64,000 bases of DNA, taken from assembly GCA_963823345.1 (NCBI GenBank), contig CAWGLE010000004.1:513166-577165 (forward strand), read 5' to 3'. Position numbers and translations under genes: made by a program. Positions 21,228-43,880 of the stretch are shown in pieces. The notes under the pieces are model-generated. The model had not been told where the DNA came from. It was given only the letters and a program-made list of their open reading frames with translations, and did not search any database. Numbering within the stretch: position 1 is the first letter of the stretch; each line of letters starts with the position of its first letter. Source of the stretch: Candidatus Sulfomarinibacteraceae bacterium (GTDB taxonomy: Bacteria; Acidobacteriota; Thermoanaerobaculia; Thermoanaerobaculales; Sulfomarinibacteraceae).

Positions 21228-23898
21228 AATTCCGGAGTGCCCGCCAAGGCGGCCCGCCGCTCATTCACCACTCCGGCACCTCGGCCCATCCCGGGAACGG
21301 ACCGACCTCGATCTTCCAGCCGGTAGAGGATTCCTCGTCCCGGACGACGCGGAGGTTTGTGAGGGTCTTGAGCTTGGCGATCAGCTCGTCGTGCGGCAGG
21401 GTGTGGAGCGGCGGCTTCGAGAGGTCGGGCATGGGCCAGACTCGAGAGGTATCGTCGATGCCCGACGACGACGAGCCAGGCGTTGTCGGGGGAGACGAAC
21501 TTGTAGCCGATCGCGCCCTCTGGCCGAGGAGGAGGTGAGGTGTTGTCCGTCCGATCCGGCCGACCTGGATCGTGCCGTCCGATTCGACCCGCGACCCAGA
21601 TCGTCGCCGTCGGGGCTGATCGAGGGATTGCCCGAAATAAGAAAATCAAGGTCTCGAGCGCCGTCGGTCCTCACGTCGAAGAGCTTTGTCGGCTCGGCAC
21701 CGGTTCATACCGCGAATCGGTGTCCCAGCAGGAGGGCCCTCGGCGGTCGGCGGTCATCGACATCGACGAGTGCCGCCGCTGGGGACCCGATGACTTCTTC
21801 GTACGTCCCGGCGTCGAGGTCCCATCGCAGCAGGCCGTTCGCACCGCTGTGTAAAGGCTGCTTTCGTCCACAAATGCGAGATGGACCGCCGCGTACCCCT
21901 CGTAGCCCTCCGGGTCCACGGGCTGTTCGAAGACCCGCACCTCGTCCGTGTCGAGGTCCCACACCCGAAGCGTCGCCTGGCCTTCCGATTGGGCGCTCGC
22001 CGCCGCCACCAGCCGCCCGCTCGGCGAGAAGCCGCCGGCGACCAGCGCTCGCTGGCAGGAAAACCGAAGAGATTCCGGGCCTCTCCACGGTCACCGAGAG
22101 CAGGAAGCTGCTGCGGCCGTACTCAGCGCCAGCACGTACCGAACGGTCGGGTCGACGGTCATTCATGTGTCCGACAGCTCCGATTCCGGTGGCAACATCA
22201 GGTCGACGATGTCGTCTGGGTGTTTCCGGGCACCGGCCAGAGCCGCACCCGGGTTGCCGGGTGATTCACCGAACAGTCGATGGCGACAAGGAAACGACCG
22301 TCACCGGTGAAGCCCTGCTCTACCAGCCCTTGATGACGATTGGGAGGGGGTCTCGGAGCGGCCACAACCCGTTCACTTTGTCGACGTCCGTCGCGCAATC
22401 CAGTCTCCGTGGGGTTGAAGCGCATGGCGAAGCTGGTGGTCTGGCGGAGCTGCAACGGTTGGCGTGGCGGATCGCCGCGAGGTCCCACAATGTCACGGGG
22501 TACCCGGATAACGAGTATTACGATGGCCCGACGCCCCGCGGGTCCGGGACGAGGCTATCGCTCGGACGCCCTCCGGCCGCCGCATTCGTTTACGGGGCAA
22601 CCAGGAGCCGACCGTCCAGGGACCACAGGATGATCTCGCCGCTGCTGTCGTCGCGAGAAGAATTCGCTCCGTCGCGCCCCAGATTTCGACGAACAACACC
22701 GTCTGACGAGTGGCGGCCGAGCAGCGTGTCGGACACGTCTTCGATGACCGGCAGAGGGCGGGAATATACGCCGTTCCCCTTGGAGTAGAGCCATGCATTC
22801 CCCCGCGGATCGAAGATGCTCGTGGACTGGTGCCGACGGCGCGAAAGTCGACCGTGCCGAGGTCTTCGGCCTCGCCGTCCGGCAGCTTCCACCGGACGAG
22901 CTTGAGCGGCCACGGCTCGCCGGCTGGGGGTGAGGATCGCGCGCCGACCTCAGCGAGGAGGTGCTGCTCGCCCACCTGCCACCACGCTCGGCCGCCGAGC
23001 TCGATCGTGGCGACGAGATCGCCCCGCGGCATCGACCACACCCGCACGCGGGTCTCGCTGTTGTGGCCGGTGACGAGAAAATCGTCACGGCTCCAACCAC
23101 ATTGGATCGGATTGTTGGCAGAAACCGCATGACCGCCGAGGACGATCGGACGGCCTCCGGCCTTCTCGTGGACCAGCACGTCCTGATTGACGATTCCCCG
23201 TCCCGCGAGCCACTGCCCGTCGGGGCTGAAGCAGGAGCCCGCGATCTGTCCCCGGGTGAAATGGCGCGGGTCGAGCACCCTGACCGGCGGTCCCGCCCAC
23301 AACGCCCGCACCGCAAACAGGCGCGCTTCACGCGAGTCTGCGAGCTCGAGGCTCGAGGTCGCGTAGGCGAGCGCCTCGGTGGGGTCCTTCTCGATCTGCA
23401 CCTGGGCCAGGGCGAGCAGCTTCGAGGCCTCGGCGCGGCGGGTCTCGAGGACGCTGCGGCGCCAGAAGGTGCCGACAAACGGCTGCCGATGACCAGGGCC
23501 AGCGCGATTGCTGCCGCTACCGCGATCCGGCGCCGCCGTCTCCGCCGCGTCGCGAGGGAGGTCATGGCGGCAGCGAAGGCCTCCTCGAGCTCGGTGAGGC
23601 CGCCCGGGTAGCGCTCCCGCCATACGGCAAACTCGCGGTAGGCGGAGCCGGTCCACAGCATGTCGTCGGTGCGGCCGTGCTCGTCCCAGGTCTTGCGCCG
23701 CCTGCCGCAGCTGGTCGCGCAGCTGGGCGGCGTCGGCGTCCTGGGTCTGCCAGCGCACGAGGCGCGGCCAGTTGGCGAGCAGCGACTCGTGGATGATTTC
23801 GACGCGGCGGGTGGGTTCCTGTTCGTCTTCGTGGATCTCGTACGAGGTCAGGAGCCGGGCGTCGATGAGTTCTCGCAGCACTTCTTCTGCGGCAGAGC

Positions 23899-23964
23899 GG
23901 GAGGGGATAAACCCCTCCCCTACGGCTTTCCTTGCGTTCGTAGGGGCGGGGTTTATCCCCGCCC
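23899..23964. repeat. REPIN type 2 embedded in paralogue A coding region
   Basis: GGGAGGGGATAAACCCCTCCCCTAC-ggctttccttgcgttc-GTAGGGGCGGGGTTTATCCCCGCCC. On the minus strand it is translated as ..AGINPAPTNARKAVGEGFIPS... Confidence 0.8.
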
Positions 23965-24993
23965 TGCGATGGTCCCCGTCAAAAATTGATAGCAACTCGT
24001 TCCATTCTCGGACCGCCCGGGTGCCTTCGGCGGTGACGAGGTTGCGGAAGAGCTCGCGGACGATGGGAATTCGTTCGGCACCGATGCGGTCGATGGTGGC
24101 TTCGGCGTGTTGGGCCAGCGCGCCGGCGACGCCGCCGATCTCCTGGTACGCTTCGCGGGTGAGGAGACCGCTCTCCTTGTCGCGCCGCTCCCACAGGCGC
24201 GCAGCCGCAAACGCCAGCAACGGCAGGGCGCCGCGCTCGCCCTCGACCTCGGCCAGCATCTCGTCCACCAACTCGTCGTCCTCGAAGCGGTAGCCGCACT
24301 GCAGCGGCGGGCTGGGACAGGGCGCGTCGGAGAGCGGCGCCGGTCGGTGGGTCGAGCAGCGTGAGGTCGGCGAAGACCGGCGCGAGGGCTTCGTGGTCGC
24401 GACACCGATCAGGAAGTCGTCCCGCATGCGACAGCAGCACGAAGCACGTCGGCCTCGAGCGCGAACGCGGCGAGCAGTGTCCGCGAACCTCTGCTGTATC
24501 GTCGGCGGAGTTCTGAGTGAACAGCTCCTCGAACTGATCGACGATCACCAGAGTGCTCGGTCGTCGCTTGCCGCCACCGCGCGACGACGTCGACCGCCAC
24601 GTCCGGTCGTCGCGGCCGCGAGCACGAGTCCATCGCCTCGGCGTCACCGGCCATCGCGGCGCCAACGCCCGTCCGCAGCGACGCTGACGGGTCGTTGCCG
24701 GGTGTGCAGATCGGACGGTGCCCCAGCCGGGCCGTGCGGTCGCAATCAGGCCTGCACGAAGGAACGAAGTCTTGCCTGCGCCCGGAGGCCCGACCAACCC
24801 GAGCATCCTCGGCGGCCCCTCGAGCTTGCGCCACATCTGCTCGACCTCGGCCTCGCGGCCGAAGAAGTACTCGGCATCAGCTTCGGTGAAGGATGCGAGA
24901 CCGGGGTAGGGGTGGAGGTCGTCGGCGCCCTCGACTCGGAGGGTCACGTCCTCGAGGGCGCGGGTGAGAGTGTGGGCGGAGTTGTATCGGTCT

Positions 24994-25797
24994 TCACGGT
25001 CCTTTCTTGACGGCCTTTTGGATCACCGCTGCCCACGGCGTGTCGGGGACTTTGGCAGGCTCGGATCGCACACCGTCCCACACGCTCTGGCGGGAGTCGA
25101 AGCTCTTGATGCCGTCGGGCTCGACCATCTCGGCGAGCACCACGCCCGCTGCGTAGACGTCGGCCCTGGCATCGAGCGTCTGCCCCGCGGCCTGCTCGGG
25201 CGACATGTAGGCGGGCGTGCCCGCGACCGTGCCACCGCCCTCGGTCTCCTGGCGGGCGAGGCCGAAGTCCATCACCACGACTCGTCCGGCGCGGGTGAGC
25301 ATGATGTTTTCAGGCTTGATGTCGCGGTGGATCAGGCCGGCCTTGTGGATGGCTTCGAGGCCCGCCAGGAACTGCGAGGCGATGTCCTGGGCTTCCTTGA
25401 GCTCGAGGGGGCCGCGCTCCTGCAGCACGCCGAGCAGCGTCGCCCCGTCGACGTACTCCATCGACACCAGCTCGCGGCCCTCGACCTCGATCAGGTCGAA
25501 GATCCGGCAGACGTTGGGCGACACCACCTCGCGCGCGGCACGCACCTCCTGGCGCAACAGCTCGAGGCGCCGCTCGGATTTGAAGAACTCGGGCCGCAGC
25601 GCCTTCAGCGCCACCTCGACCCGCAGCTTGAGGTCGAAGGCGTGCCACACCTCGCCCATCCCGCCGCGGCCCAGCATCTCGAGGATCTGGTAGCGCTCAC
25701 CCAGCACCTGGCCGGGCGCGAAGCCCTTCATCCCCTCCGGCAGGTCGAGGGTCTCGCCCTCGCCCTCGGTGCGGGTGGTGAGGTCGTGGTCAGTCAT
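24994..25797 (-). CDS. Stand-alone Hanks-type Ser/Thr kinase ORF (intact N-terminal remnant of paralogue A)
   Basis: 267 aa with GRGGMGEVW, VALK, HRDIKPEN, DFG and GTPAYMSPE. It terminates at TGA 24994-24996 after an extra base near 25001 relative to paralogue B. Confidence 0.6.
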   Translation of the reverse strand: MTDHDLTTRTEGEGETLDLPEGMKGFAPGQVLGERYQILEMLGRGGMGEVWHAFDLKLRVEVALKALRPEFFKSERRLELLRQEVRAAREVVSPNVCRIFDLIEVEGRELVSMEYVDGATLLGVLQERGPLELKEAQDIASQFLAGLEAIHKAGLIHRDIKPENIMLTRAGRVVVMDFGLARQETEGGGTVAGTPAYMSPEQAAGQTLDARADVYAAGVVLAEMVEPDGIKSFDSRQSVWDGVRSEPAKVPDTPWAAVIQKAVKKGP

Positions 25798-25831
25798 CGT
25801 ATACCCACACTCGCGACATGACTGGATCATG

Positions 25832-25879: not shown

Positions 25880-25972
25880 CCACAACGGACTATCGGCCGT
25901 CTCGGTCGGGCACGTGCTCCACGGCCCAGGGCGCGGCCGTCGCGACAAAAACTCATCTGAGGTATCCTCGAC

Positions 25973-26412
25973 GTGGAGGCCCCGATCATGAACTCGAACG
26001 TTGGTCCGGCCGAGCGCATCACCGCAGTGCTGTCGGCTCGTCCGGAGATCCTCGAAGCGTACCTCTTCGGGTCCGGGCGCGAGGTGAGGGCCAGGCGCAC
26101 AGCGATATCGACATCGCTGTTTTCATCGATGAAGCGAAGGTCGAACCGGGCCCCTTCGGATACCGAGCAGAGCTGACATCGGCGCTGATGAGCGGCCTCG
26201 GCACCAACGCCGTCGATGTCGTGGTGCTCAACCGCGCGCCGCCGCTTCGTGTACCACCGGGTCCTGCGCGACGGCTGCGTCTGTGTTCACGCGACCTTCG
26301 TGCAACCACGGTTCGCGAGGGCAGGGCCCTCTCACGCCACTGCGATTTCGTGCCGCAGCTGGCGAAGATCGACGCCATACTAGGTGCTCGAGCGCCGTTC
26401 TCGGAGAGGTAG
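25973..26412 (+). pseudogene. mntA: MntA-type minimal nucleotidyltransferase (antitoxin), copy 1, frameshifted
   Basis: ..RITAVLSARPEILEAYLFGS.. (frame 2) then ..GEGQAHSDIDIAVFIDEAKVEPGPFGYRAELTSALMSGLGTNAVDVVVLN.. (frame 1). There is a 1-nt deletion near 26071-26080 relative to copy 2, plus a +1/-1 pair around 26245-26290. Confidence 0.65.
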
Positions 26413-26414
26413 TC

Positions 26415-26845
26415 GTGGGCCCGGGTGAAATCGACGTCCTGATCATACGTCGCCACCTGGCCGCTCTCCGCGAGTCGCTCCAGGTCCTCGCCGCTCGCAA
26501 TGAGGTCTCTCTCGAGGAACTCGACGCCGACACCGAGCTGCTGTGGGTCGTGGAACGCGGTCTCCAGCTCTGCGCACAAAACGCGCTCGACATCGCGACC
26601 CACATCGCGGCAAGCAGGGGCGGGACGTCCCGGACTACGCCAGCGCCATCGACGAGCTCGGGCGCCTCGACGTGCTCGACCATGATTTCGTACGCGAGTT
26701 TCGCAACGTTGCGGGCTTCCGGAACGTGCTGGTGCACGGCTATCTCGATGTGGACCTGGATGTCCTGTACACGCTCCTGCACGACCGTCTCGGAGACTTC
26801 GAGTCCTTTGCGGCCCGAATCGAGACCTACCTCGAAAACCTCTGA
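26415..26845 (+). pseudogene. hepT: HepT-type HEPN (DUF86) toxin, copy 1, frameshifted
   Basis: GTG 26415 lies 2 nt after the mntA stop. The N-terminal half is in frame 0 (..LWVVERGLQLCAQNALDIATHIAA..). The C-terminal half is in frame 2 (..DVPDYASAIDELGRLDVLDHDFVREFRNVAGFRNVLVHGYLDVD..; Rx4H motif). The shift is near 26605-26625. Confidence 0.65.
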
Positions 26846-29432
26846 GGCCCGCCTGTGCCCGCCAGGGTCGCCTGATCTCGGATGAGATCGCCCGAAGAAC
26901 AATCGTCTCCTCACGGCATCACCATGTCGGCACCGTTTCCCACCCGGGAAGGGATCGTGGGTCAGCTTCCATCCGGTGGAGGATTCCTCGTCGCGGACGA
27001 CGCGGAGGTTGGTGAGGGTCTTGAGTTTGGCAATGAGCTCCTCACGCGGCAGGGTGTGGAGCGGGGCCTTCGAGAGGTCGGGCATGGGCCAGAGGCGGAC
27101 TGTTCCATCATTACCCCCGGACGCGATCCATCGACCGAGGGGGTCGATTGCGAATGTCCACACCGTGCTCTCGTGACCGAGCAGAAGATGCGGTTCTTCT
27201 CCGGTCAGGGGACCAACGCGGATCTCGCCATCCCGGTCCCCGGTAACGGCAAGAGTCCCAGCTGGATCGATGCCAACAGCTGATATATTGTTCCCGAATC
27301 GTTCGAGGCTGGTTTTCGTCCCTGAGTCGAGATCGAGAAAGACGGCTTTTCCAGACAGAGGGTCCGACTTTTCATCTTCGATGACGAGCACCCGGCGCCC
27401 ATCGGCGCTCGCAGCAAACAACCCGACGCTCCCTTCGGGCTTATACAAAAGGTCACGTCGCCCACCCCGAATATCCCATTGCCACAGCCCCGACACACTT
27501 GTCGAAAGCAGACGGTCTCCTGTCGTGAATTGAAGGCAATCGGGTCGGGTTGGTTCTCCAACTTCCAGGACGGCCACTTCCTCACCTGACGGAACGTCCC
27601 AAACCCTGATCTTTTGTTCTGCAGGATCGAATCTTCCCCCTGCAGCGGCGGCCAAGCGGCCGTCGGCACTGAAGGCCACCCCCCATGTCTGACCCGTGAA
27701 ACCTTCGAGGTTGATGGAGAACCCGCCATCGGACTGCAGTAGCCGTGTGCCCGCCCCATTGGTGCCGGCCAGGATCTGCTCACCGTCTGGTGATACTGCA
27801 ATACCCGTCGTCCATGTGTTCAGTTCCAACAATATGCGCCCCGGCGGAGGAGGGTCCCCTTCGAGTGGCCACAGCCTGACGGTGCCGTCCATAGAACTCG
27901 AAGCGAGCCAACTGCCGTCGGGTGCGAATGCGAGACCGGGCACTTCTAGATCTTGTTGCCGTATGACGATGGGAGACTGCCTCGACAGCGGCCATATTGC
28001 CAACCCGGCCAGGTCAGCGGTCGCCAACCAGTCGCCTCGGGGGCTGAATGCACACTGTCGAGTTGCATGTTGTCGCCGCGGAGGAGAACCAGCGGTTCGG
28101 CGTCGATCGGCAAATCCGTTGACCACACGCGATACTTCAAATCGGGTCCCCACCGGGCCACCCGTCTGCCGGAGTCGTCCCATCTCCGCCACCCCCAACC
28201 GGTTCCACCAAGATTGAAGCGGCGAAGGAATCGGGGGGAATCTCCTGATACGGCCCAGACCGATGAAACAAAATTGCCGTCTTCTCGAGCAAGCGCTTCG
28301 AGGCGGGACCCGTCAATCGAAAACTCGAGGGAACGAATTCCTAGTGGCCCCTTGAATACAAATGGTGGAAGGACACCGCGTGGATCCCACAGTCGGATCT
28401 CTCCCCTCGACGTCCGCTGTGGCGACAAAACGCCCAAGGGGATCCACGGCAACGCCCACGGCAGTGCGACCGACCCTGCCCAAACGCCGCGCCGGAGAGA
28501 GGGCGTGGTCGCCCACCTCGGCGATGAAAACATCGCCATCAGCAACAACGCCGATCCAGGCCCCATTCTGAGGGTCGAGATCGAAGTGAGTCAGCCATTT
28601 CCCGTCTTGATCCCGTTTGACCACGAACTCCAGCGTGCCGAGGCGCTCAACTGAACCGTCGTGACCCAGGGTATCGACAACGCCGAGGTTGTTTTCCTCG
28701 ACCAGTAGAACGTGGCGATCTCTGTTCGTATCCTCCGCGATGCCTCTCGTGTACGCGGGTTCCTTGTAACGGATGTCTGCCAGCCTCGTCTCCTCTATTA
28801 CTGACCATAGGCCGTGCTCCCAGGTCCCGTCGGCACCGGACCCATAGGTTACGAAGTGCCCGGTGTTGCTGATACGCGATACGGCTCCGGCCGACGCGGA
28901 AGCCTCTGATTCAAGGTATCTGCTGGACCCGTCGGCAGAAATGACGCTCAATCGGGGACTCCCTTCGGGGACACCTCTCCTTTGTTGAACCAGCCACCTG
29001 CCGTCGGGGCTGAATGGGCAGGCCCAGACCTGGTCATCGGAGGCAACAAGCGCTGTAGGTCCTTTCCACAGCGCTTCGAGGGCAAGCAGGCGCGCACTTG
29101 GACCGTCGGCAAGTTCCAGGCTTGCGATCGCGTGGGCGACCGCTGCTGACGGGTACGACTCCAGTTCCAGCTGTCCCAGCGACACGAGGTTTGCCGCTTC
29201 GGCGCGGCGCTCCTGGAGAGCGCTCCGTTGCCACAAGATAGTCGTTGCCGCAGTTACCACTGCGGCGATCACCAGGGCCGCCGCCACTGCGGCGCGGCGT
29301 CTACTTCGTCGGCGGCCTGAAAGGGCGACCATGGCACCGGCGAACGCTTCCTCGAGTTCGGTCAATCCTCCCGGATATCGATCCCGCCACACGGCGAACT
29401 CTCGGTACGCCGAACCGGTCCAAAGCAGATCG

Positions 29433-31559
29433 TCAGACCGATCGTGCTCGTTCCACGTCTTTGCAGCCTGCCGGAGCTGATCGCGGAGCTGGGCCGCGTC
29501 GGCGTCCTGGGTCTGCCAGCGTACGAGGCGCGGCCAGTTGGCGAGCAGCGATTCGTGGATGATTTCGACCTGGCGCACCGGCTCGTGCTCGTCCTCGTGG
29601 ATTTCGTAGGAGGTCAGGAGCCGCGCATCGATCAATTCCGCGCAAGACCTCTTCGGCAGCGCTGCGGGAGGGGATTAACCCCTCCCCTACGGCTTTCCTT
29701 GCGTTCGTAGGGGCGGGGTTTATCCCCGCCCTGCGATGGTCCCCATCGAAGATCGACAGGATCTCGTCCCATTCGCGGACGGCTCGGGTGCCTTCTGTGG
29801 TGACGAGGTTTCGGAAGAGTTCTCTTACAACGGGAATGCGTTCGACGCCGATGCGGGCAATCGTCGCCTCTGCGTGCTGGGCAAGCGCTCCGCCGACCCC
29901 GCCGATGTCCTGGTAAGCCTGGCGGGTGAGGAGTCCGGTTTCGCGATTTCGCATCTCCCAGAGCCGCGCCGCAGCGAAGGCCAGCAACGGGAGTGCTCCT
30001 CGTTCACCTTCCACCTCGACGAGCATCTCGTCCACCAGATCGTCGTCCTCAAAGCGGTAGCCGCACTGGAGGGCGGGTTGTGTCAGGGCGCGCCGGAGGT
30101 TGGCACCGGTCGGCGGATTGAGCATCGTCAGCTCGTTGAAGACCGGTTGAAACTGCTCGTGCGAGCTGCACGATGCGGCGAAATCATCCCTCATGGACAG
30201 CAGCACGTGGGTGTCGGCTTCGAGGGGGAGTCGGGCGAGCAGGGTCGCAAAGTGCTTTTGGCGATCGCCGGAATGGAGGGTGAATAACTCCTCGAATTGG
30301 TCGAGGATTAGAAGGGTCGCGCGATGATTTCCTCGTGCGTTCGCCATCGTCTCGATGATGACGTCCGGGTTTTCGGGATCCGTCAGAAGACGCTCGAGGT
30401 TGTCGTGCTCGTGAGAAAGCACGGAAGTCAGCGCGCCGCGCAGCGAGGCAACAGCTGCGTTTCCGGGAGTGCATCGCAGAATTATCCAGCCGGTTGGAGC
30501 ATGCGCCATCAACCCCGCTCTGATGAACGAGGTTTTTCCTGCGCCAGATGGCCCCATGATTGCGATCATCCGCGCCGGTCCCTCGAGCTTGCGCCACATC
30601 TGCTCGACCTCGGCCTCGCGGCCGAAGAAGTACTCGGCGTCTGATTCGGTGAAGGAGGCGAGACCGGGGTAGGGGTGGAGGTCGTCGGCGCCTTCGACGC
30701 GGAGGGTCACGTCTTCGAGAGCGCGCGTCAGCGTGTGGGCGGAGTTGTAGCGGCCTTCGCGGTCTTTTTTTACGGCCTTCTGGATTACCTGAGCCCACGG
30801 CGTCTCGGGGACCTTTGCGGGTTCGGAGCGCACGCCTTCCCACACGCTCTGGCGGGAGTCGAAGCTCTTGATGCCCTCGGGGCTCACCATCTCGGCCAGC
30901 ACCACGCCTGCCGCGTAGACGTCGGCCCGTGCGTCGAGCGTCTGGCCTGCCGCCTGCTCGGGCGACATGTAGGCCGGGGTGCCGGCGACCGTGCCGCCGC
31001 CCTCGGTCTCCTGCCGGGCGAGGCCGAAGTCCATCACGACCACCCGCCCGGCCCGGGTCAGCATGATGTTCTCGGGTTTGATGTCGCGGTGGATCAGCCC
31101 GGCCTTGTGGATCGCCTCCAGTCCGGCGAGAAACTGCGAGGCGATGTCCTGGGCTTCCTTGAGCTCGAGCGGTCCACGCTCTTGAAGAACGCCGAGAAGG
31201 GTCGCCCCGTCGACGTACTCCATGGACACCAACTCGCGGCCCTCGACCTCGATCAGATCGAAAATGCGGCAGACGTTGGGCGACACCACCTCGCGGGCCG
31301 CTCGCACTTCCTGGCGCAGCAGTTCGAGTCGCCGCTCGGATTTGAAGAACTCCGGTCGCAGCGCCTTCAGCGCCACCTCGACCCGGAGCTTGAGATCGAA
31401 GGCGTGCCACACCTCACCCATCCCACCGCGCCCGAGCATCTCGAGAATCTGGTACCGCTCACCCAGCACCTGGCCGGAGGTGAACCCCTGCATCCCCTCC
31501 GGCATGTCGAGGGTCTCGCCCTCACCCTCGGTGCGGGTGGGGAGGTTTGGGTCAGTCAT
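29433..31559 (-). CDS. Kinase + STAND NTPase ORF of paralogue B (708 aa, intact up to just after the REPIN insert)
   Basis: Full kinase motifs, then ..LHPYPGLASFTESDAEYFFGREAEVEQMWRKLEGPARMIAIMGPSGAGKTSFIRAGL.., ..LLILDQFEELF.. (Walker B-like). Confidence 0.65.
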   Translation of the reverse strand: MTDPNLPTRTEGEGETLDMPEGMQGFTSGQVLGERYQILEMLGRGGMGEVWHAFDLKLRVEVALKALRPEFFKSERRLELLRQEVRAAREVVSPNVCRIFDLIEVEGRELVSMEYVDGATLLGVLQERGPLELKEAQDIASQFLAGLEAIHKAGLIHRDIKPENIMLTRAGRVVVMDFGLARQETEGGGTVAGTPAYMSPEQAAGQTLDARADVYAAGVVLAEMVSPEGIKSFDSRQSVWEGVRSEPAKVPETPWAQVIQKAVKKDREGRYNSAHTLTRALEDVTLRVEGADDLHPYPGLASFTESDAEYFFGREAEVEQMWRKLEGPARMIAIMGPSGAGKTSFIRAGLMAHAPTGWIILRCTPGNAAVASLRGALTSVLSHEHDNLERLLTDPENPDVIIETMANARGNHRATLLILDQFEELFTLHSGDRQKHFATLLARLPLEADTHVLLSMRDDFAASCSSHEQFQPVFNELTMLNPPTGANLRRALTQPALQCGYRFEDDDLVDEMLVEVEGERGALPLLAFAAARLWEMRNRETGLLTRQAYQDIGGVGGALAQHAEATIARIGVERIPVVRELFRNLVTTEGTRAVREWDEILSIFDGDHRRAGINPAPTNARKAVGEGLIPSRSAAEEVLRGIDRCAAPDLLRNPRGRARAGAPGRNHPRIAARQLAAPRTLADPGRRRGPAPRSAPAGCKDVERARSV
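29666..29731. repeat. REPIN type 2 embedded in paralogue B coding region
   Basis: GGGAGGGGATTAACCCCTCCCCTAC-ggctttccttgcgttc-GTAGGGGCGGGGTTTATCCCCGCCC. Confidence 0.8.
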
Positions 31560-31585
31560 GGATGACTCGAGAGTCGATTCCCAGT

Positions 31586-31757: not shown

Positions 31758-34700
31758 TCACCATGTCGGCACCGTTTCCCAACCGGGGAAGGGATCGTGG
31801 GTGAGCTTCCAGCCGGTGGAGGATTCCTCGTCGCGGACGACACGGAGGTTGGTGAGGGTTTTGAGCTTGGCGATGAGATCCTCACGCGGCAGGGTGTGGA
31901 GCGGCGGTTTCGAGAGATCGGGCATGGGCCAGAGACGGATCGTCTTGTCCTTGCCTCCTGATGCGACCCACCGGCCAAGAGGATCGAAGGCGAGGGCGGT
32001 CACGCCGTTTTCGTGGCCAAGAAGAAGGTGGGGCTCTTCGCCGGTGATCGGCCCCACTCGAACCACACCGTCCGTGTCACCCGTCGCCACAATCTTGTTT
32101 TTTTGGTCGAGGGCGACGGCATAGACCCTGGTCCCATGGGTCTCGAGAGTCCTCGTCTCGCCAGTTTCAAAGTCCAAGAAAACAGCACGCTTTGGCGCGC
32201 TTGCTTCGAGCACATAGCCCTCAATGACGATCGCTTGTTTCCCGTCCGAGCTGGCATCAAAGAGAAAAATATTTCCCTCGTAGAGCAGTTCGCTTTCACC
32301 GGTCACGAGATCCCATTTCCGCAGCCCGAACTCGCTCGAGGAAAGGAGGTGACCGTCATTCGTGAATTGAAGACAGAACACTCGACGGCCCTCGGGATAC
32401 AGCACCGCCACTTCTTCCCCTGAAGTGCGGTCCCAAACGAGGATTCGGATCTCAGGGGTCTTTACATCCAACACGCCGGCGCAGAGCCGGCCGTCGGGAC
32501 TGATCGACGCGCCCCAAAAACTCACCGGCCCGATGTCCGGTACGGTCTGGAACTCCTCGCCCGAAAGAGAGAACAACCGAGCGCCCGACCACGCGGTACC
32601 AGCGAGGAGCTGCTCCCCGTCGGGCGTCCTTGCAAGGTCGTACATCTGTTTGCCCGGGTCCTTCAAAAGGATGCGGCCTGGAGGGAGGACATCACCCTCC
32701 AACGGCCAAAACCTCACTGTGTCATCCATCGAGGACGAAACCAGCCAGCGACCCTCCGGACCGAACAGAAGGTCCATGACCTCCTTTTCATGACGCCGGA
32801 TCACCGCCGGGTACGGCCGAGCCAGCGGCCACAGCGCGGCGCCGGCCTTGTCGGCACTCGCCAGCCAGTTTCCGTTCGGGTGGAAAGACAGGCCCCACAA
32901 GACGTCAACGTCGCCGCGGAGCAGGAACACCGGCTCGGCATCGGCAGGCGCAGCCATCGGCCAGAGCCGAATTTTGAGGTCGGAACCACTCCTGGCTATT
33001 TGCCAGCCTACACGGTTGAGGCCCCACCATCCGATACCGTCGTCACCGACTGGGAATGGGCGGAGAAATCGTGGCGGATTGGTATCAAGCAACCAGATCC
33101 ACGATGTGACCTCTCCTTCCTCAAACACCGAGGCTTCCAGTAGTGATCCATCGGCGGTGATGTCGAGAATCGCTCCCGGAGGGGCACTGAGAAGGATCGG
33201 CGGCGAATCTCCCGCGTTGTCCCAGAGGCGAATTCGTCCATCCTCGGCTATGGTGGCGAAAAAACGCCCCAACGGATCGAAGAGAACTTTCCTGACGGGC
33301 TCCACGTGGCGGCCCAGCCGGCGTGGTTCGGAGAGGCTGTGTTCGCCGATATCGATGACCAGCACGTCTTCATCCACCACCGCGCCAAGCCAGCGGCCGG
33401 TTCGGCGCTCGAGATCGGTACGGCGGATCCAATCCCTGGAGGTTTTAAAACCGAGGTCCGGGGTGCCGAGACGTTTGCGAGCGCCGCCAAAGCCGAGGAT
33501 ATCGATGCTTCCTATTTTGCCTTCGAGTACCAGGTACACCATTCGCTGCTGGGTGGCGTTGACGGCCTGTCCCAATAGGCGGGCTGGGCCGTCATAACTG
33601 GCCTCACTGAGCATTCGTCCGTCTGCAACAGACCAGAGTGCGAGGAGTGGGAGCACGGATTTGTCAAAGAACCCGAATGAACTGAAGACACCGGTCTCCA
33701 GCCCCACTCGAATATTGATCCGCCTTGACTCATGCTGGTGCTGGAGCAACTCACTGGTTCCGTCAGCCTTGATTAACCGCAGGTTGCCGGTCCCGTCTCC
33801 TGACTGCACCAGGGCGCGCCCGTCGGGGGTGAACTCGGCTTGCCAAGAACTCTCGTCATTGATGACCAGTGCGGTCGGCCCCCCCCACAACGCCGCCTGG
33901 GCCAAATAGCGGGCGCTCGGACTGTCGGCGAGTTCGAGGCTGGTGATGGCGTATGCGACGGCGGCGGACGGATAGGAATCGAGTTCCTGTTGCCCGAGGG
34001 CAAGGAGTTCATTCGCTTCAGCACGGCGGGTCTCTCTTTCGCTCTTCGCCCACATCCCGCCGAGAATCGAGGCAACTCCGGCGAGCACAACCAACGCAGC
34101 TGCCATGACGAGCCGCCGCCGCCGTTTTCGACGGGTGGCAAAGGAGGTCATTGCCGTGGCGTAGGCCTCCTCGGTCGACGTGAGACCACCCGGGTATCGT
34201 TCCCTCCACAGTTCGAACTCGCGGTAAGCAGTTCCGGTCCAGAGTCGATCATCGTGCCGGCCGTGCTCGTCCCAGGAGCGAGCTGCCTGCCGAAGCTCGT
34301 CGCGGAGCTGGGCTCCTTCCTGGTCCTGCGTTTGCCAGCGCACGAGGCGCGGCCAGTTGGCGAGGAGGGACTCGTGGATGATCTCCACGCGGCGGGTGGG
34401 TTCGTGCTCGTCTTCGTGGATTTCATAGGAGGTCAGCAGGCGGGCGTCGATGAGTTCGCGAAGGACCTCTTCGGGCGATTTGCTGTGGGAATCGCTGAAT
34501 ATTGAAAGAAGCTCACCCCATTCGCGCACCGCGCGCGTGCCCTCTGCGGTCACCAGGTTCCGGAACAGTTCGCGGACGATCGGAATGCGCTCCGAACCGA
34601 TGTGGTCGATAGTTGCTTCGGCGTGCTGGGCGAGCGCGCCGCCGACGCCGCCGATCTCCTGGTACGCTTGACGGGTGAGCAGCCCAGTCTCGCGGTCGCG

Positions 34701-34919
34701 CTTCTCCCACAGACGTGCGGCAGCGAACGCCAGTAGCGGCAACGCGCCGCGTTCGCCTTCGACCTCGGCCAGCATCTCCTCGATCAGCTCATCGTCTTCG
34801 AAGCGGTATCCGCACTTTGTCGCGGGTTGCACGCTGCGCGGCGCAGATCGCCCCCGGTCGGCGGGTCGAGCACCGTGAGTTCTGGAAGATCGGATCGCAG
34901 CGAATCGTGGGCATTGCAT
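31758..34919 (-). CDS. Intact 1053-aa ORF of paralogue C: distal NTPase/helical region - TM - WD40 - conserved tail
   Basis: Homology begins at ..KCGYRFEDDELIEEMLAEVEGERGALPLLAFAAARLWEKRD.. and runs uninterrupted to ..THDPFPGWETVPTW*. The first ~35 codons are out-of-frame junk, so the true start and expression are unclear. Confidence 0.45.
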   Translation of the reverse strand: MQCPRFAAIRSSRTHGARPADRGRSAPRSVQPATKCGYRFEDDELIEEMLAEVEGERGALPLLAFAAARLWEKRDRETGLLTRQAYQEIGGVGGALAQHAEATIDHIGSERIPIVRELFRNLVTAEGTRAVREWGELLSIFSDSHSKSPEEVLRELIDARLLTSYEIHEDEHEPTRRVEIIHESLLANWPRLVRWQTQDQEGAQLRDELRQAARSWDEHGRHDDRLWTGTAYREFELWRERYPGGLTSTEEAYATAMTSFATRRKRRRRLVMAAALVVLAGVASILGGMWAKSERETRRAEANELLALGQQELDSYPSAAVAYAITSLELADSPSARYLAQAALWGGPTALVINDESSWQAEFTPDGRALVQSGDGTGNLRLIKADGTSELLQHQHESRRINIRVGLETGVFSSFGFFDKSVLPLLALWSVADGRMLSEASYDGPARLLGQAVNATQQRMVYLVLEGKIGSIDILGFGGARKRLGTPDLGFKTSRDWIRRTDLERRTGRWLGAVVDEDVLVIDIGEHSLSEPRRLGRHVEPVRKVLFDPLGRFFATIAEDGRIRLWDNAGDSPPILLSAPPGAILDITADGSLLEASVFEEGEVTSWIWLLDTNPPRFLRPFPVGDDGIGWWGLNRVGWQIARSGSDLKIRLWPMAAPADAEPVFLLRGDVDVLWGLSFHPNGNWLASADKAGAALWPLARPYPAVIRRHEKEVMDLLFGPEGRWLVSSSMDDTVRFWPLEGDVLPPGRILLKDPGKQMYDLARTPDGEQLLAGTAWSGARLFSLSGEEFQTVPDIGPVSFWGASISPDGRLCAGVLDVKTPEIRILVWDRTSGEEVAVLYPEGRRVFCLQFTNDGHLLSSSEFGLRKWDLVTGESELLYEGNIFLFDASSDGKQAIVIEGYVLEASAPKRAVFLDFETGETRTLETHGTRVYAVALDQKNKIVATGDTDGVVRVGPITGEEPHLLLGHENGVTALAFDPLGRWVASGGKDKTIRLWPMPDLSKPPLHTLPREDLIAKLKTLTNLRVVRDEESSTGWKLTHDPFPGWETVPTW

Positions 34920-36304
34920 GCGGCTACGAAGTCATCGCGCATTGAAAGCAGCACGTGGATGTCGCTCTCGAGAACGGATCGCCGCAGCAGTTCTGCGAAC
35001 CTCCGCTGTTCTTCGATACCGTTCTGAGTGAACAGCTCTTCGAACTGATCGACGACTACGAGAGCATGTGTGTCCGTTCGCGCCCAGCTGGCCGAGTACC
35101 TGAACGGCGACGTCGGCATCGCCGAAACGAGGAAGCAGCTCGACCGCGTCCGGATCTCCAGCCGTTTCGCCGGCCACCACCCCGGCGAGCGAGGAGGTGG
35201 CTGCGTTTCCGGGAGTCGATCGGATGATCCCCCAGTCCGGCGGAGCGTGGGCCACGCAGCCCGGCCGCGAGAAACGAGGATTTTCCTGCCCCCGAGGGCC
35301 CGATAATTGCGAGCATTCGCGGCGGCCCCTCGAGCTTGCGCCACATCTGCTCGACCTCGGCCTCGCGGCCGAAGAAGTACTCGGCGTCTGCCTCCGTGAA
35401 TGATGCGAGCCCGGGATAAGGGTGGAGGTCGTCGGCGCCTTCGACGCGGAGGGTCACGTCTTCGAGGGCGCGCGTCGAGGGTGTGGGCGGAGTTGAAGCG
35501 ACCCTCGCGGTCTTCCTGACGGCCTGTTGGATGACCTGCGCCCACGGGGTGTCCGGGATCTTTGCGGCTCGGAGCGCACGCCTTCCCAGACGCTCTGCCG
35601 GGAGTCGAAGCTCTTGATTCCGTCGGGGCTCACCATCTTCGGCCAGCACCACGCCGCTGCGTAGACGTCTGCCCGCGCGTCGAGCGTCTGTCCCGCCCCT
35701 GTTCGGCGACATGTAGGCCGGAGTGCCGGACACCGGCCTCCGCCCTCGGTTTCCTGACGGGCGAGGCCGAAGTCGATCACGACGACCCGACCGGCCCGGG
35801 TGAGCATGATGTTTTCCGGCTTGATGTCGCGGTGGATCAGGCCGGCCTTGTGGATGGCTTCGAGCCCGGCGAGGAACTGCGAAGCGATGTCCTGGGCTTC
35901 TTTGAGTTCGAGCGGCGCGCGCTCCTGGAGCACTCAAGCAACGTCGCGCCGTCGACATACTCCATCGACACCAGCTCACGGCCTTCGACCTCGATCAGAT
36001 CGAAGATGCCGGCAGACGTTGGGAGAGACCACCTCACGAGCGGCGCGGACTTCCTGCCGCAACAGTTCCAGCCGCCTCTCGGACTTGAAGAACTCGGGCC
36101 GCAATGCCTTCAGCGCCACCTCGACCCGCAGCTTCAGGTCGAAGGCGTGCCACACCTCGCCCATCCCGCCACGTCCGAGCATCTCGAGGATCTGATAGCG
36201 GTCACCCAGCACCTGTCCGCGGTGCGAAGCCCTTCATCCCCTCCGGCATGTCGAGGGTCTCGCCCTCACGCTCGGTGCGGGTGGTGGAGATCGTGGTCAG
36301 TCAT
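31758..36304 (-). pseudogene. Paralogue C of kinase - STAND NTPase - TM - WD40 protein (N-terminal kinase/NTPase part decayed)
   Basis: ATG 36304 (MTDHDL..). An extra C gives a stop after 12 codons. Kinase and NTPase pieces lie in ORFs 35976-36212, 35454-35933, 35056-35979 and 34784-35545, with several shifts and a few replacements (E->D, G->A, M->I). It lacks the REPIN insert (..LLSIFSDSHSKSPEEVL..). Confidence 0.65.
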
Positions 36305-36482
36305 TGGTTATCCGAGTCGGAAGTGACCGGTTTGGTGGACGGGTCACTCCGAGGCCCGCCACCGCCCACCCGGCGGGCCGGGACGGCTGCCCCACAACGG
36401 ACACATTGGCCACTTTGTCGGGCACGCGCTCCGCGGCCCCGGCGCTGTCGTCGCGACAGGAACTATCTGAGGTATCCTCGAC

Positions 36483-36923
36483 ATGGAGGCCCCGTTCATG
36501 GATCCGAAAGATCTGCTGGCTGGACGCATCACCGCGGTGCTGTCGGCTCGTCCGGAGATTCTCGAGGCGTATCTCTTCGGATCCCACGCTCGGGGTGAGG
36601 GCCAGGCGCACAGCGATATCGACATCGCTGTGTTCATCGATGAAGCACGAGGTCGGACCGGGCCCCTTCGGATACCGAGCGGAACTGACCTCCGCGCTGA
36701 TGAGCGGTCTCGGCACCAACGCCGTCGATGTCGTGGTGCTCAATACCGCGCCGCCTCTCCTGTACCACCGGGTTCTGCGCGACGGCTCCCGTCTGTACTC
36801 TCGCGACCTTCGCGCGACGACGGTTCGCGAGGGCCGGGCCCTCTCGCGCCACTGCGATTCGTGCCGCAGCTCGCGAAGATCGACGCCATACTAGGTGCTC
36901 GAGCGCCGTTCTCGGAGAGGTAG
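36483..36923 (+). pseudogene. mntA: MntA-type nucleotidyltransferase, copy 2, middle third out of frame
   Basis: ..YLFGSHARGEGQAHSDIDIAVFIDEA (frame 0), then a +1 shift near 36645-36655. ..PGPFGYRAELTSALMSGLGTNAVDVVVLNTAPPLLYHRVLRDGSRLYSRDL..ALSRHCD is in frame 1, then a -1 shift near 36858 returns to ..FVPQLAKIDAILGARAPFSER*. Confidence 0.65.
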
Positions 36924-36925
36924 CC

Positions 36926-37357
36926 GTGGGCCCGGGTGAGATCGACGCCCTGATCATTCGGCGGCACCTGGCCGCTCTCCGCGAGTCGCTCCAGGTACTC
37001 GCCGCTCGCAGCGACGTCTCTCTCGAGGAACTCAACGCCGACACCGAACTGCTGTGGGTTGTTGAGCGCGGTCTCCAACTCTGCGCACAAAACGCGCTCG
37101 ACATCGCGACGCACATTGCAGCCGGCCGGGGGCGCGATGTCCGGACTACGCCAGCGCCATCGACGAGCTCGGACGCCTCGGCGTGCTCGACCGATGAGTT
37201 CGTACACGAGTTTCGCAACGTCGCCGGTTTCCGGAACGTGCTGGTGCACGGCTATCTCGATGTGGACCTGGATGTCCTGTACACGCTCCTGCACGACCGT
37301 CTCGGAGACTTCGAGTCCTTTGCGGCCCGAATCGAGACCCACCTCGAAAACCTCTGA
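36926..37357 (+). CDS. hepT: HepT-type HEPN (DUF86) toxin, copy 2; open frame but with a 19-codon recoded patch
   Basis: GTG 36926. ..EFRNVAGFRNVLVHGYLDVDLDVLYTLL.. (Rx4H). Between ~37140 and ~37197 a -1/+1 pair turns the ancestral VPDYASAIDELGRLGVLD into VRTTPAPSTSSDASACSTD. Confidence 0.6.
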   Translation: MGPGEIDALIIRRHLAALRESLQVLAARSDVSLEELNADTELLWVVERGLQLCAQNALDIATHIAAGRGRDVRTTPAPSTSSDASACSTDEFVHEFRNVAGFRNVLVHGYLDVDLDVLYTLLHDRLGDFESFAARIETHLENL

Positions 37358-37430
37358 GCCTCGGTTGTGCCCGCCAGGGTCGCCTGATCTCGGATGAGAT
37401 CGCCCGAAGCGTAAGCGTCTCCTCATGACA

Positions 37431-40400
37431 TCACCACGTCGGCACCGTTTCCCACCCCGGGAAGGGATCATGGGTGAGCTTCCACCCAGTGGTGGACTCT
37501 TCGTCGCGGACGACGCGGAGGTTGGTGAGGGTTTTGAGCTTGGCGATGAGATCCTCACGCGGCAGGGTGTGGAGCGGCGGCTTCGAGAGGTCGGGCATAG
37601 GCCAGAGGCGGATCTCGGTTCCCGACGACGAGGCGATCCAACGATCCAGAGGGTCGACAGATACGGCGTAGATCTCGTCCGGATTTCCAAGCAGAAGATG
37701 AGGTTCCTCGCCAGTTATGGGTCCGACGCGGATCACGCCGTTCGAGTCACCCGTTACAGCGACCGTGCCCGATGGATCTATCGCGACCGCTGTCACGCGG
37801 TCCCCATGGGACTTGAGCGTATTTGTCAATCCGGTCTCGAGGTCGAGCGACACGGCTTTACCTAAAAGGGCCAAGGACGCCCTCTCGTTCCCAACTTCGG
37901 ACAGAAGCGCGTGGGTACTGTCCACGCCAACCGCAAACTTCTCCACAGGTTTTTCGAACAGGGCTTCCGTGACACCGGTTTCAAAATCCCAGCCGAACAA
38001 ACCCGATGAGTGCGAATACAGAACGAGCCCCCCCTCCGTGAATTGGAGGAAAGGAGTGGCATTGGTTTTGGCCAATTCGAGCGCTGCTATCTCTTCGGAC
38101 GAGGAAAGGTCCCACACTCGTACAACGGTTTCCTCATAATTCCCTTTCAAACCGGTGGCTGCAGCGAATCGGCCGTCGGGGCTGAACGCCGCTCCCCATA
38201 CAATTTTGGCGACGCCTGGAAGATCAACAGGTTTCTCATTGCTGAGTGAGAGCAGTTTTGTGCCGGTGGCGTGGGTCCCGAGAAGGAGGTGTTCCCCGTC
38301 AGGGGAAGCAGCGAGACCGTACGGATAAGCCCCCGCCTCGAACACAGTCCGGGCCGCCGGCACGTTATCGCCCTCCAAATCCCACACGCGAACGGCGCCG
38401 GTTGAGTCGACACCGCTCGTCGCGAGCCACCTGCCCTCGGGTCCGAATACCAAATTCATGGCTCGCTCCTCGTACCGATTGATCACCGCTGGGTAGGGTC
38501 AGGTCACTGGCCAGAGAGTCAGGCCGTTTGTAAACGAGGTGGCCAACCACCCGCCATTCGGGTGAACTCTCACGCGTCTCGGGGTGCTGGCGTCACCTCG
38601 TTGCAAGATTGTGGGTTCGGCGTCAGCCGGCGCCCGCAACCACCACAGCCGGGTTTTCGGGTCTGGATTGAGGATGCTGACGATCTGACCTTCAACTGGA
38701 TTGAGCGTCCAGCCCGCGGTTCCGCTGCTCTTCCCAAGATCGATGTGGCGAAGCAAGGTCGGTTCGCGGTCCCGAAGAGACCAGATCCACGATTCGACCA
38801 TGTCGTTTTTCCGTGTGATAACCTCGAACAACGATCCGTCGCCACTGATACTGAGTCGAATGTCGCCGCGTGGCCCCCCTTTGATCTCCCGTGGCGGCGA
38901 CTCCCCATCCAGGTCTCGCAGACGAATCCGCCCGTCTTCGGAGAGTGAAACGACGAATCGACCCTGGGGGTCGCATTGGAGGCGCACGACTGGAGTATCG
39001 AGAAAATCGAGATGTCGCGGCTCTGAGAGTTCGTGGTCTCCGACCTCGATCACGTAGACATTTTGACCGGACCCAACGGCAAACCATTTTCCTTTCGGGG
39101 CGCTTTGGCAAAGAACTGTCGAACGCGAGTCAAATGGGAGAGCGCCGAGGCGTTCGGAGCTGCCGTCGAATCCTAAGGCATCGATGAAGAAACGGTCGTC
39201 CTCTATCGACATCAGCAATACGCGGGCTCGCCCCAGGTCGAAATAGATTCTCCGAGTATTTTCTGGAATCCCGGATCGGCCGGTGGAAAGCAGTTTTTTT
39301 TCAGGAGCCGACCAGAGCGCCCATAGTTCGGCGTTGCCCCAGGGACTTGTCGCGAAAACTCCTGATTCCGTATCCATCGTCAGACCAACCCAGTCATCGT
39401 GCACGTCCTCTAACAGTTCATCGGTTCCTTCAGCACCGATAACATGCAGTTGGTAAGGGGCCGCATCCGTTGCCTGCACGAGCCACTGACCGTCAGGGGT
39501 GAACTCGATTTCCCACGACGGAATTTCGTTGACAACAAACGCTGTCGGGCCTTTCCAGAGCGCCTTGAGTGCGAGGAGCCGAGCCTCTGAACTGTCCGCC
39601 AGTTCGAGACTGGCCGTCGCGTATGCCACTGCGGCTGACGGATACGACTCGAGTTCTACCTGCGCCTGGGAAAGAAGGGTGGCGGCCTCGGCGCGGAGAG
39701 TTTCGCGGACGCTTCGCTGCCAGAATGTGCCGACGACCGCGAGGCCGGCGAGGAGGACAGCGAACCCTGCGCTCACCGCTATTCGACGCCTGCGCCGACG
39801 TCGCCCGGCGAGGGAGGTCATGGCGTTCCCGAAATCTCTTTCGATCTCGGTCAGGCCACCGGGATAGCTTTCGCGCCACACGGCGAACTCTCGGTAAGCC
39901 GAACCGGTCCAAAGCAGATCGTCAGATCGGTCGTGCTCGCTCCACGTCTTCGCTGCCTGCCGGAGTTGATCGCGGAGCTGGGCCGCATCGGCGTCCTGGG
40001 TCTGCCAGCGCACCAGCCGCGGCCAGTTGGCGAGCAGAGATTCGTGGATGATTTCTACTCTACGGGTTGGTTCGTGTTCGTCTTCGTGGATTTCGTATGA
40101 GGTCAGGAGTCGGGCGTCGATGAGTTCGCGAAGGACCTCTTCTGCGGCAGTGCGGGAGGGGATGAACCCCTCCCCTGCGGCTTTCCCTGTCTTCGTAGGG
40201 GCGGGGTTTATCCCCGCCCTGGGGTAGCTCCCACCGAAAATCGAAAGGAGTTCATTCCATTCACGGACGGCGCGGGTGCCTTCGGCGGTGATGAGGTTTC
40301 GGAAGAGTTCTCTGACGATGGGGATCCTCTCGACACCGGTGCGATCGATTGTTGCCTCGGCGTGCTGCGCCAATGCCCCGCCGACGCCGCCGATGTCGTG

Positions 40401-42045: not shown

Positions 42046-42079
42046 CGCGTGCCCTCAGATCCTGACGTATCAGTACGTG

Positions 42080-43196: not shown

Positions 43197-43207
43197 TTGG
43201 AGGCGAT

Positions 43208-43863: not shown

Positions 43864-43880
43864 TCACCAACCCGCCGCCC

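Follow-up and report, generated by a model that had tools for sequence, protein, structure and literature searches.

Birth-and-death evolution under purifying selection is the mode described by Nei and co-workers for the polyubiquitin and histone H3/H4 families, and the concept is applied in PMC2253510, among other papers. Clusters of NOD-like receptor (NLR) genes in fungi and plants, for example the NWD/HET-E genes of Podospora, combine a conserved N-terminal effector with hypervariable repeats, and to our knowledge a near-zero omega (dN/dS) of the effector together with deep silent divergence is not a reported feature of such clusters. The diversification of fungal NLRs is treated in PMC13449251. 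In bacteria, nSTAND1 has been defined as a STAND clade of counter-invader systems whose effectors include Ser/Thr/Tyr kinases and FHA domains (Kaur, Iyer, Burroughs, and Aravind, eLife 2021, PMC8195603), and a related source on conflict systems is Dore et al. (bioRxiv 10.1101/2023.09.22.558884). In Mycobacterium tuberculosis, the FHA domain of EmbR reads the phosphothreonines of the kinase PknH (PMC9239209, PMC8636726). Here, we analyzed a stretch of 64,000 nucleotides (nt), referred to below as the window, from a Candidatus Sulfomarinibacteraceae bacterium of the Acidobacteriota (GenBank assembly GCA_963823345.1, contig CAWGLE010000004.1, positions 513,166 to 577,165 of the forward strand). 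Between 21.2 and 42.9 kb, on the minus strand, it holds four tandem paralogs (A, B, C, and D) and a preceding gene at 42197-42928. Judged by their domain content, the four paralogs are NLR-like receptor genes in a tandem array, each built from a kinase, an nSTAND1 nucleoside triphosphatase (NTPase) and WD40 propellers, downstream from a gene for a regulator with a winged helix-turn-helix (wHTH) and an FHA domain.

Copies A and B encode the same kinase in different DNA. We aligned the copies by codon in the reading frame of B and calculated dN and dS by the Nei-Gojobori method with Jukes-Cantor correction (NG86/JC), as well as p4, the difference at fourfold-degenerate sites. Over a core of 197 codons running from GQVLGERYQ to VVLAEMV (A 25713-25123, B 31475-30885, D 41961-41370), the amino acids of A and B are identical and 62 codons differ, all of them synonymously. 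If differences were placed at random, the chance that all 62 would be silent is (151/591)^62, or about 1e-37. The core of D departs from this by a single I>V replacement (ATC/ATT>GTG, core codon 10) once a +1 insertion near 41877 is taken out, and the A-D and B-D pairs have one replacement each. Both the identical run and the single replacement had been noticed in a first-pass annotation made from the letters alone, and both hold. Its worked example of 8 differences in 60 nt is correct for 25141-25200 against 30903-30962, whereas the coordinates it quoted for B, 30901-30960, are 2 nt out of register and give 44 differences. That annotation had also considered that replacements might prove as common as silent changes; in the full codon alignment, A and B differ at 62 of 151 synonymous and 0 of 440 nonsynonymous sites (dS 0.59, dN 0).

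Among the A, B, and D pairs, dS is 0.49-0.64, dN 0-0.008 and p4 0.36-0.42. Copy C is less tightly held, with five replacements unique to it and an omega of 0.03-0.06 in the pairs that include it. Silent sites are not saturated in any of these comparisons, p4 being 0.29-0.45 against a saturation value of 0.63, and the 62 differing codons compare with about 94 for independent encodings of the same protein. Drift at silent sites has covered about two thirds of the distance to saturation, and saturation as a trivial cause of the pattern was rejected on these figures. The constraint also has clear edges. Omega is 0.4-0.8 in the first 28 residues, which are free to vary, 0.06-0.12 in the linker, and 0-0.09 in the nSTAND1 lead-in, TLRVEGADDLHPYPGLASFTE.DAEYFFGREAEVEQMWRKLEGP; around and after the Walker A loop, nucleotide identity is 48-66%, with dN of 0.34-0.44 and dS of 1.1-1.3. 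This is the collapse that had been described at first pass, where identity was seen to run through the lead-in and then to fail. The longest exact nucleotide runs are 23-71 nt in the kinase core and 59-80 nt in the lead-in.

A protein kept identical among tandem copies might simply have been copied. Recent gene conversion, that is, classical concerted evolution, would find support in a tract shared by C and D (described below), in exact matches reaching 80 nt within the lead-in, and in a kinase dS below that of the adjoining P-loop segment. However, conversion would homogenize silent sites too, and 27-33% of the codons for the same amino acid differ among A, B, and D (22-37% in pairs including C); further, the paralogs are no closer to each other than to the copies of other species. 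Recent conversion is excluded as the main cause. The first-pass argument that gene conversion cannot explain the pattern is correct for recent events, given p4 values of 0.29-0.45, and too broad otherwise: older or patchy recombination has shaped the kinase module.

A different proposal is that silent divergence was itself selected, because it blocks RecA-mediated deletion or conversion between tandem repeats. In its favor, the tandem copies are only 4.6-5.8 kb apart, and their longest exact runs in the core are as short as 23-71 nt. Yet when differences were permuted over the sites capable of synonymous change in nine pairs, their spacing was not over-dispersed. The longest runs were 38 nt for A-B against 38.7 expected and 71 nt for A-D against 41.8, and B-D alone fell below expectation (P=0.03 in one of the nine tests). 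Copies in different genomes, to which such selection cannot apply, have diverged to the same degree, and this explanation seems to us highly improbable. An overlapping antisense gene or an RNA structure as the source of constraint was rejected by reasoning, since either would limit the silent sites of the kinase, which are free. Antisense open reading frames (ORFs) of 254-301 amino acids do lie over every kinase module, on the plus strand at 24964-25821, 30675-31565, 35562-36326, and 41160-42065. They are probably a by-product of high GC content, and the free silent sites of the kinase would be replacements in them.

How strong the constraint is can be judged against other genes. We compared 16 copies from 8 contigs, the loci from relatives being labeled L001, L081, L082, L083, L162, L163, and L164, with suffixes _1 and _2 for copies within a locus. 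L081 and L162-L164 are syntenic loci; their flanks are 82-89% identical to the window in nucleotides, and these loci therefore represent different species. By parsimony, the cores of A, B, and D require 97 silent steps and 1 amino-acid step (omega ~0.0035), nine conserved copies from five contigs require 295 and 16 (omega ~0.019), and all 15 copies require 588 and 94 (omega ~0.055). As a baseline, window and L164 give an omega of 0.066 for UvrB (p4 0.21), 0.066 for the wHTH-FHA protein and 0.10-0.15 for others, and window and L163 give 0.15-0.18 for three genes. Were their omega that of UvrB, A, B, and D should show about 19 replacements; they show 1 (P ~1e-7). The omega of the module is 3-20 times tighter than that of UvrB. 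The N-terminal module, consisting of the kinase core, the linker and the first ~45 nSTAND1 residues up to Walker A, is very probably near-invariant by purifying selection.

The constraint reaches well beyond this genome. Comparison with orthologs in related genomes, a check proposed at first pass, shows that the kinases of L162, L163_2, L164, and L081_2 are 97-100% identical to those of the window in protein, with a similar level of silent divergence (16-41% of same-amino-acid codons differ). Silent distances are star-like. The kinase nearest to A is L162_2 and no paralog in the window, at silent sites A and B lie closest to copies from L162 and L163, and C with D is the sole pairing inside the window. 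It is the clade as a whole that has a frozen kinase, and not this genome's paralogs in particular. The near-absolute purifying selection proposed in the first-pass annotation is thus borne out for A, B, and D (omega ~0.004 against 0.066 for UvrB), whereas its attachment to this particular set of copies is not. The closest match in a scan of genome contigs was a Thermoanaerobaculia metagenome-assembled genome (MAG) at 90% amino-acid identity, and a scan of metagenomes gave only two close relatives. A homolog search with a 300-residue query returned, among the matches listed, only products of at most 521 amino acids, and members of 708 and 1489 amino acids exist at 95-100% identity. The idea that every relative is truncated was accordingly rejected, the list of homologs being biased to short gene calls.

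The same set of loci bears on whether the silent differences could be an assembly product, either a chimeric consensus of collapsed repeats, which the first-pass annotation had named as its alternative, or one of mixed strains. Reads of at least two haplotypes do appear to have been merged here, as both-allele insertions described below show, and the alleles in the consensus may stem from different strains. Nevertheless, the pattern of a near-identical protein with 16-41% of codons silently different is found in all 16 copies from the 8 contigs, which come from independent assemblies, some of them gap-free and probably short-read, and it recurs free of replacements. Merging the reads of paralogs would reduce the differences between copies, not create them, and errors in a consensus would not avoid replacement sites. 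An assembly origin is very improbable.

More serious is the possibility that the paralogs are kept alike at the protein level within one genome, as they would be if all copies had to match one partner or to co-assemble and if replacements spread between them by short, selected conversion tracts. This is the first-pass idea in its strong form, and it predicts paralogs more alike than clade-wide constraint alone would make them. In A, B, and D there is indeed 1 amino-acid step, against ~5.3 predicted from the clade rate (97 x 16/295; Poisson P ~0.03), 2-14 residues separate foreign copies of similar p4, and patchy tracts exist. The excess identity is marginal, however, and 7 of the 16 clade steps sit in a single converted patch of L081_2. 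In other arrays, 29 (L081), 11 (L082), 14 (L163), and 2-3 residues (L162, L164) separate the tandem partners, several foreign copies are just 2 residues from A and B, and no window-specific replacement is fixed in all four copies to mark a sweep. We consider homogenization of this kind unlikely, and prefer constraint shared by the clade.

Recombination is written into the genes nonetheless. Kinase dS across window pairs (0.4-0.76) is about half that of the adjoining P-loop segment (1.1-1.3). The long nucleotide tract common to C and D at the 5' end of the kinase, reported at first pass together with a patchy history, is exact as a 42-mer at 36029-36070 and 41771-41812, within exact runs of 46 and 64 nt. 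The wider tract (36025-36135 and 41767-41877) has a Sawyer-type permutation P of 0.013, uncorrected for six pairs, and informative sites include ten consecutive AB|CD sites (nt 113-269) followed by mixed support. A larger exchange is visible in B, whose P-loop cassette at 30020-30641 matches L081_2 of another species (10913-11534 in L081) over 622 gap-free bp at 96.6% nucleotide identity. Between these two copies, p4 is 0.03-0.08 in codons 351-500 and 0.41-0.52 in the amino-acid-identical kinase just upstream. The flanks of the cassette are 65-88% identical, falling to 65-78% in the part downstream, and it starts no more than ~60 bp from the lead-in's exact runs of 59-80 nt. These features suggest a recent exchange between species, anchored in the conserved lead-in. 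Modules have been exchanged among paralogs and across species, and the genes are recombination mosaics in which the sensor and P-loop parts are old, highly divergent, and exchangeable. Because all donor kinases encode the same protein, exchange within the kinase is invisible in the protein and only reshuffles silent variants. Taken together, we are fairly confident that the family follows birth-and-death evolution with segmental recombination under strong purifying selection.

A 69-nt insertion, RAGINPAPTNARKAVGEGFIPSR, lies in the C-terminal half of the NTPase (~23800-23870, ~29570-29640, and ~40060-40130). Copies A, B, and D have it, as do L162, L164, and L163_2, and C, L081, L082, L083, and L163_1 lack it. 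GC content at third codon positions (GC3) declines along the array genes (37431-42045, 29433-31559): the kinase has 0.87, the NTPase 0.72, and the propellers 0.64-0.70; for comparison, it is 0.83-0.92 in core genes of the window and 0.68-0.71 in accessory genes (PIN, DUF4143).

All four genes are broken in the assembly. Copy A (25797-21265; kinase, nSTAND1 NTPase, transmembrane helix, and WD40) begins at an ATG at 25797 that aligns with the ATG of B at 31559. Its kinase ORF of 267 amino acids (24994-25797) is ended by a +1 insertion at ~25005 in the linker, and several more frame breaks follow in the NTPase and WD40 part, the homology of the remainder (21265-24947, with the lead-in at 24762-24944, then the NTPase and the WD40 tail) being spread over three frames. 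Copy B (26919-31559) has an intact ORF of 708 amino acids at 29433-31559 that covers kinase and nSTAND1 (lead-in 30525-30707), followed by 28313-29635 and a WD40 tail to ~26919; a +1 insertion lies near 29640, and there is at least one further break downstream. The product of the kinase ORF of A is identical to a protein on record (P0023), and the 708-residue product of B is likewise on record (P0134), from the same contig. Copy C (31758-36304), with kinase and lead-in at 35205-36304, carries ~12 indels of 1-2 bases in its first 1.1 kb, at 36285, 36220, 36008, 35933, 35735, 35696, 35655, 35639, 35567, 35514, 35477, and 35256. It then has 3.1 kb of intact ORF (31758-34919, 1053 amino acids) for the C-terminal half of the NTPase, the transmembrane helix, and WD40. 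Copy D (37431-42045) has the one +1 insertion near 41877 and an ORF of 1149 amino acids (38499-41948) that terminates at an in-frame TGA at 38499-38501, beyond which lies a WD40 tail at 37431-38486.

The breaks have a peculiar form. Eleven of the 13 +1 insertions in kinase modules on long contigs duplicate both alleles of an adjacent polymorphic site (random expectation 0.33; binomial P=2e-4), the inserted base being the alternative allele, for example CT[C][G]AAG in D, CG[G][C]ATC in C, and AA[A][G] in A. One such insertion, GA[C][G]GGC, is common to L162_2 and L163_2 from two separate assemblies. In the C-terminal half of the NTPase, 4-5 of ~8 insertions assessed by eye clearly fit the both-allele pattern, and the others are unclear. 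Every event involves 1 or 2 nt. Copy C has roughly as many insertions as deletions, and its indel:substitution ratio is ~1:1. In the alignment of the 16 copies, frameshifting indels are confined to long, probably long-read contigs, and orthologs in other assemblies are broken at other sites. The copies in L001, L082, and L083 (~90% amino-acid identity in the kinase; short, probably short-read contigs) have in-frame gaps only, and L082 and L083 carry three full-length or uninterrupted copies. Random sequencing error was rejected as the cause and the errors are region-specific: 9 of 10 unique flanking ORFs match a Pfam family unbroken, an aminotransferase (1-371 of 371) and MraW (2-308 of 309) from end to end; the remaining scanned ORF, which overlaps the MraW gene, matches no Pfam family, and a frame plot gives no unexplained switches outside 21-42 kb. 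Of the 16 copies in the window, L081, and L162-L164, gene calling left 13 fragmented or truncated, and the genes flanking them are intact. The frameshifts are probably consensus artifacts that arose where reads of two haplotypes or paralogs were combined at sites of silent polymorphism. On this view, with the possible exceptions of the TGA of D and of copy C, the cell would carry four intact genes.

The contrary explanation, that the copies are real pseudogenes, recently inactivated as part of the fast turnover of immune-like families, draws on fragmented copies in several assemblies and on broken toxin-antitoxin genes between the copies. It also draws on three observations that weigh against our own interpretation. 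First, the TGA of D, in the WD40 region, is a plain C>T change where the L164 ortholog has CGA (Arg) and, unlike the both-allele indels, may be a real nonsense mutation. Second, the terminal branch of C has 7 silent and 5 replacement changes, which could be real relaxation of constraint. Third, two JGI products, P0121 and P0127, end in out-of-frame tails; some breaks may be real, or the JGI contigs may also be long-read. To these must be added that the artifact interpretation of the frameshifts was inferred from assembled consensus sequence, that NG86/JC distances are crude at a GC3 of ~0.87, that recombination breaks the single-tree assumption of the parsimony counts, and that some kinases in the same arrays are less constrained (32 differences in L081_1, 14 in L163_1), which means that an invariant output is no rule for every copy.

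Natural gene decay in bacteria is deletion-biased, with fewer indels than substitutions. Against real pseudogenes stand the similar numbers of insertions and deletions, the short length of all events, the indel:substitution ratio in C, the retention of both alleles at silent polymorphic sites, the absence of common breaks among orthologs, and the intact copies of L082 and L083. With omega near 0, hardly any time remains in which neutral decay could have acted, and the conflict with long-dead pseudogenes pointed out at first pass is upheld. On this evidence we find recent inactivation of the set quite improbable. Because the frameshifts look like consensus artifacts, the pseudogene problem largely dissolves.

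The kinase matches Pkinase (PF00069) with 149 bits, and its motifs are readable (GRGGMGEV, VALK, HRDIKPEN, MDFG, SPE); from these motifs and the omega near 0, it appears to be an active Hanks-type Ser/Thr kinase. nSTAND1 (PF20703) is matched with 252 bits in B and 309 bits in D, against a cut-off of 27.1, and the match in D spans positions 1-378 of the 379 in the profile. The Walker A P-loop is intact, GPSGAGKT/S in B, C, and D and GPPGAGKT in A. A single transmembrane helix, IAVSAGFAVLLAGLAVVGTFW, consisting of 21 hydrophobic residues after a RRRRRRR run, is placed between NTPase and propellers. The tripartite arrangement of Pkinase, nSTAND1, and WD40 is found in D, in C, and in intact relatives of 1489-1528 amino acids. 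In PADLOC, the kinase domain matches PD-T4-6, mad6, and PglW at E values of 1e-71 to 1e-23; all 35-36 matches fall within residues ~14-291, in the kinase, with none over the NTPase or sensor, no Avs and none on the FHA protein. No NCBIfam model reaches its cut-off.

The gene at the head of the array (42197-42928) encodes 243 amino acids with a Trans_reg_C winged helix of the OmpR/CadC type (53.7 bits) and an FHA domain (70.6 bits) in which the canonical residues GR, SxxH, and NG are present; NCBIfam matches to CadC and FhaB are sub-threshold. No match to BTAD, the bacterial transcriptional activation domain, was found in this protein in Pfam at E<=0.001. The order isochorismatase, two PIN toxin-antitoxin pairs, wHTH-FHA gene, and array is kept in L162, L163, and L164, where the wHTH-FHA gene again heads the array. 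From this synteny, the protein is a candidate phosphothreonine-dependent output regulator, and an FHA partner shared by the kinases, as proposed at first pass, is plausible.

A mechanism can be pictured by analogy. As in STAND proteins, a ligand seen by the variable propellers would trigger NTP-dependent oligomerization, which in turn would activate the kinases by proximity autophosphorylation of activation-loop threonines (TEGGGTVAGTPAYMSPE). As in PknH-EmbR, the FHA domain of the neighboring wHTH regulator would read the phosphorylated kinase or its substrate. Many different sensors would in this way feed one invariant output, and the lack of freedom in the output module would be accounted for by the number of sensors that depend on it. 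Pressed further, the array might be a bank of many sensors with one output, in which sensor and P-loop cassettes are swapped among paralogs, and even across species, by recombination anchored in the lead-in and the kinase is frozen by co-assembly of paralogs or by a single wHTH-FHA factor. The 622-bp cassette is the evidence for the swapping. This fuller proposal is tentative and, in our estimate, doubtful. If it is true, the receptor bank would be NLR-like, bacterial, and coupled to transcription, with exchange of cassettes, rather than a cell-suicide effector. Kinase activity, oligomerization, topology, and the FHA link are all predictions, and this too weighs against our overall interpretation.

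Between the paralogs lie further genes. An MNT-like nucleotidyltransferase and HepT toxin-antitoxin pair between A and B (25950-26885, plus strand) and a second MNT/HepT pair between C and D (36483-37357, plus strand) are both broken by frameshifts, and their counterparts are intact at L163 1264-2123 and L081 17732-18377. The pairs belong to a duplicated unit in which 23982-27282 matches 34498-37792. In the window, 42197-45284 holds the two PIN toxin-antitoxin pairs, PIN/PrlF and PIN/PhdYeFM. The arrays of relatives are interspersed with genes resembling TonB-dependent receptors (CarboxypepD_reg plus OMP_b-brl_4), with AbiEii, and with a DUF4143 ATPase. Farther along, the start of the dcw cell-division cluster (57536-60533, plus strand; MraW methylase, then an FtsI-type penicillin-binding protein) looks intact, as do TamB (52179-56075) and NAD kinase (55916-56887), which with the dcw genes form an internal control for assembly quality.

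The locus is a clean bacterial example of paralogs whose protein identity is kept by selection, not by copying, within one module of an otherwise hypervariable multidomain receptor. Kinase and nSTAND1 lead-in are the least free part of these little-studied acidobacterial NLR-like proteins, and thus the best experimental handle on them, whether for the substrate, the FHA partner, or the oligomer interface. The P-loop cassette, near-identical across species, offers a testable starting point for work on cassette exchange among the STAND receptors of bacteria. There is also a warning for users of assemblies that are probably long-read and metagenomic: polymorphic multigene loci can gain both-allele frameshifts that mimic pseudogenes and fragment gene calls. 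The both-allele +1 insertions, which also occur in L162, L163_2, and L164_2, look like a recognizable signature of a mixed-haplotype consensus in such assemblies.

Set beside the described systems, the array shares with the counter-invader conflict systems an nSTAND1 NTPase with an N-terminal effector and C-terminal repeat sensors, paralogous genes, and toxin-antitoxin and AbiEii neighbors. It differs in having a transmembrane helix between NTPase and propellers and the FHA domain on a separate wHTH protein, and a role in defense would rest on analogy. No diversity-generating retroelement, lectin, or death-like adaptor is annotated in the loci examined, where no search was aimed at these. With Avs and the kinase defenses in PADLOC (PD-T4-6, MAD6, PglW), it shares the STAND logic of sensor, NTPase, and effector and homology of the kinase domain, whereas the kinase domain alone gives a match. 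PknH-EmbR offers the likeness of a transmembrane Hanks-type kinase encoded beside an OmpR-type wHTH and FHA transcription factor. However, EmbR has a BTAD between wHTH and FHA, for which there is no Pfam match here, and PknH is a single gene rather than an array and has neither a STAND NTPase nor WD40 propellers.

In plan, counterparts are the NWD/HET-E genes of Podospora, with an effector, a STAND NTPase and WD40 repeats, clustered paralogs, rapidly diverging and recombining sensors, and a conserved N-terminal module. Work on fungal and plant NLRs has focused on diversifying selection in the repeats, whereas the present genes are bacterial and, by prediction, membrane-anchored. In mode of evolution, the counterparts are polyubiquitin and histones H3/H4, which likewise show near-identical protein with diverged silent sites, grouping across species, and broken copies in the family. 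Real dead copies, expected under birth-and-death evolution, are less certain here, since most breaks look artifactual and only the TGA of D and copy C may be real. What sets the array apart from polyubiquitin and the histones is that one module is frozen while the rest of the gene is among the most variable sequence of the window, and that this is a bacterial tandem array with segmental recombination, whose apparent dead copies are mostly probable artifacts. The pattern adds one more case to a mode of evolution that is already known, in a protein architecture that is known as well.

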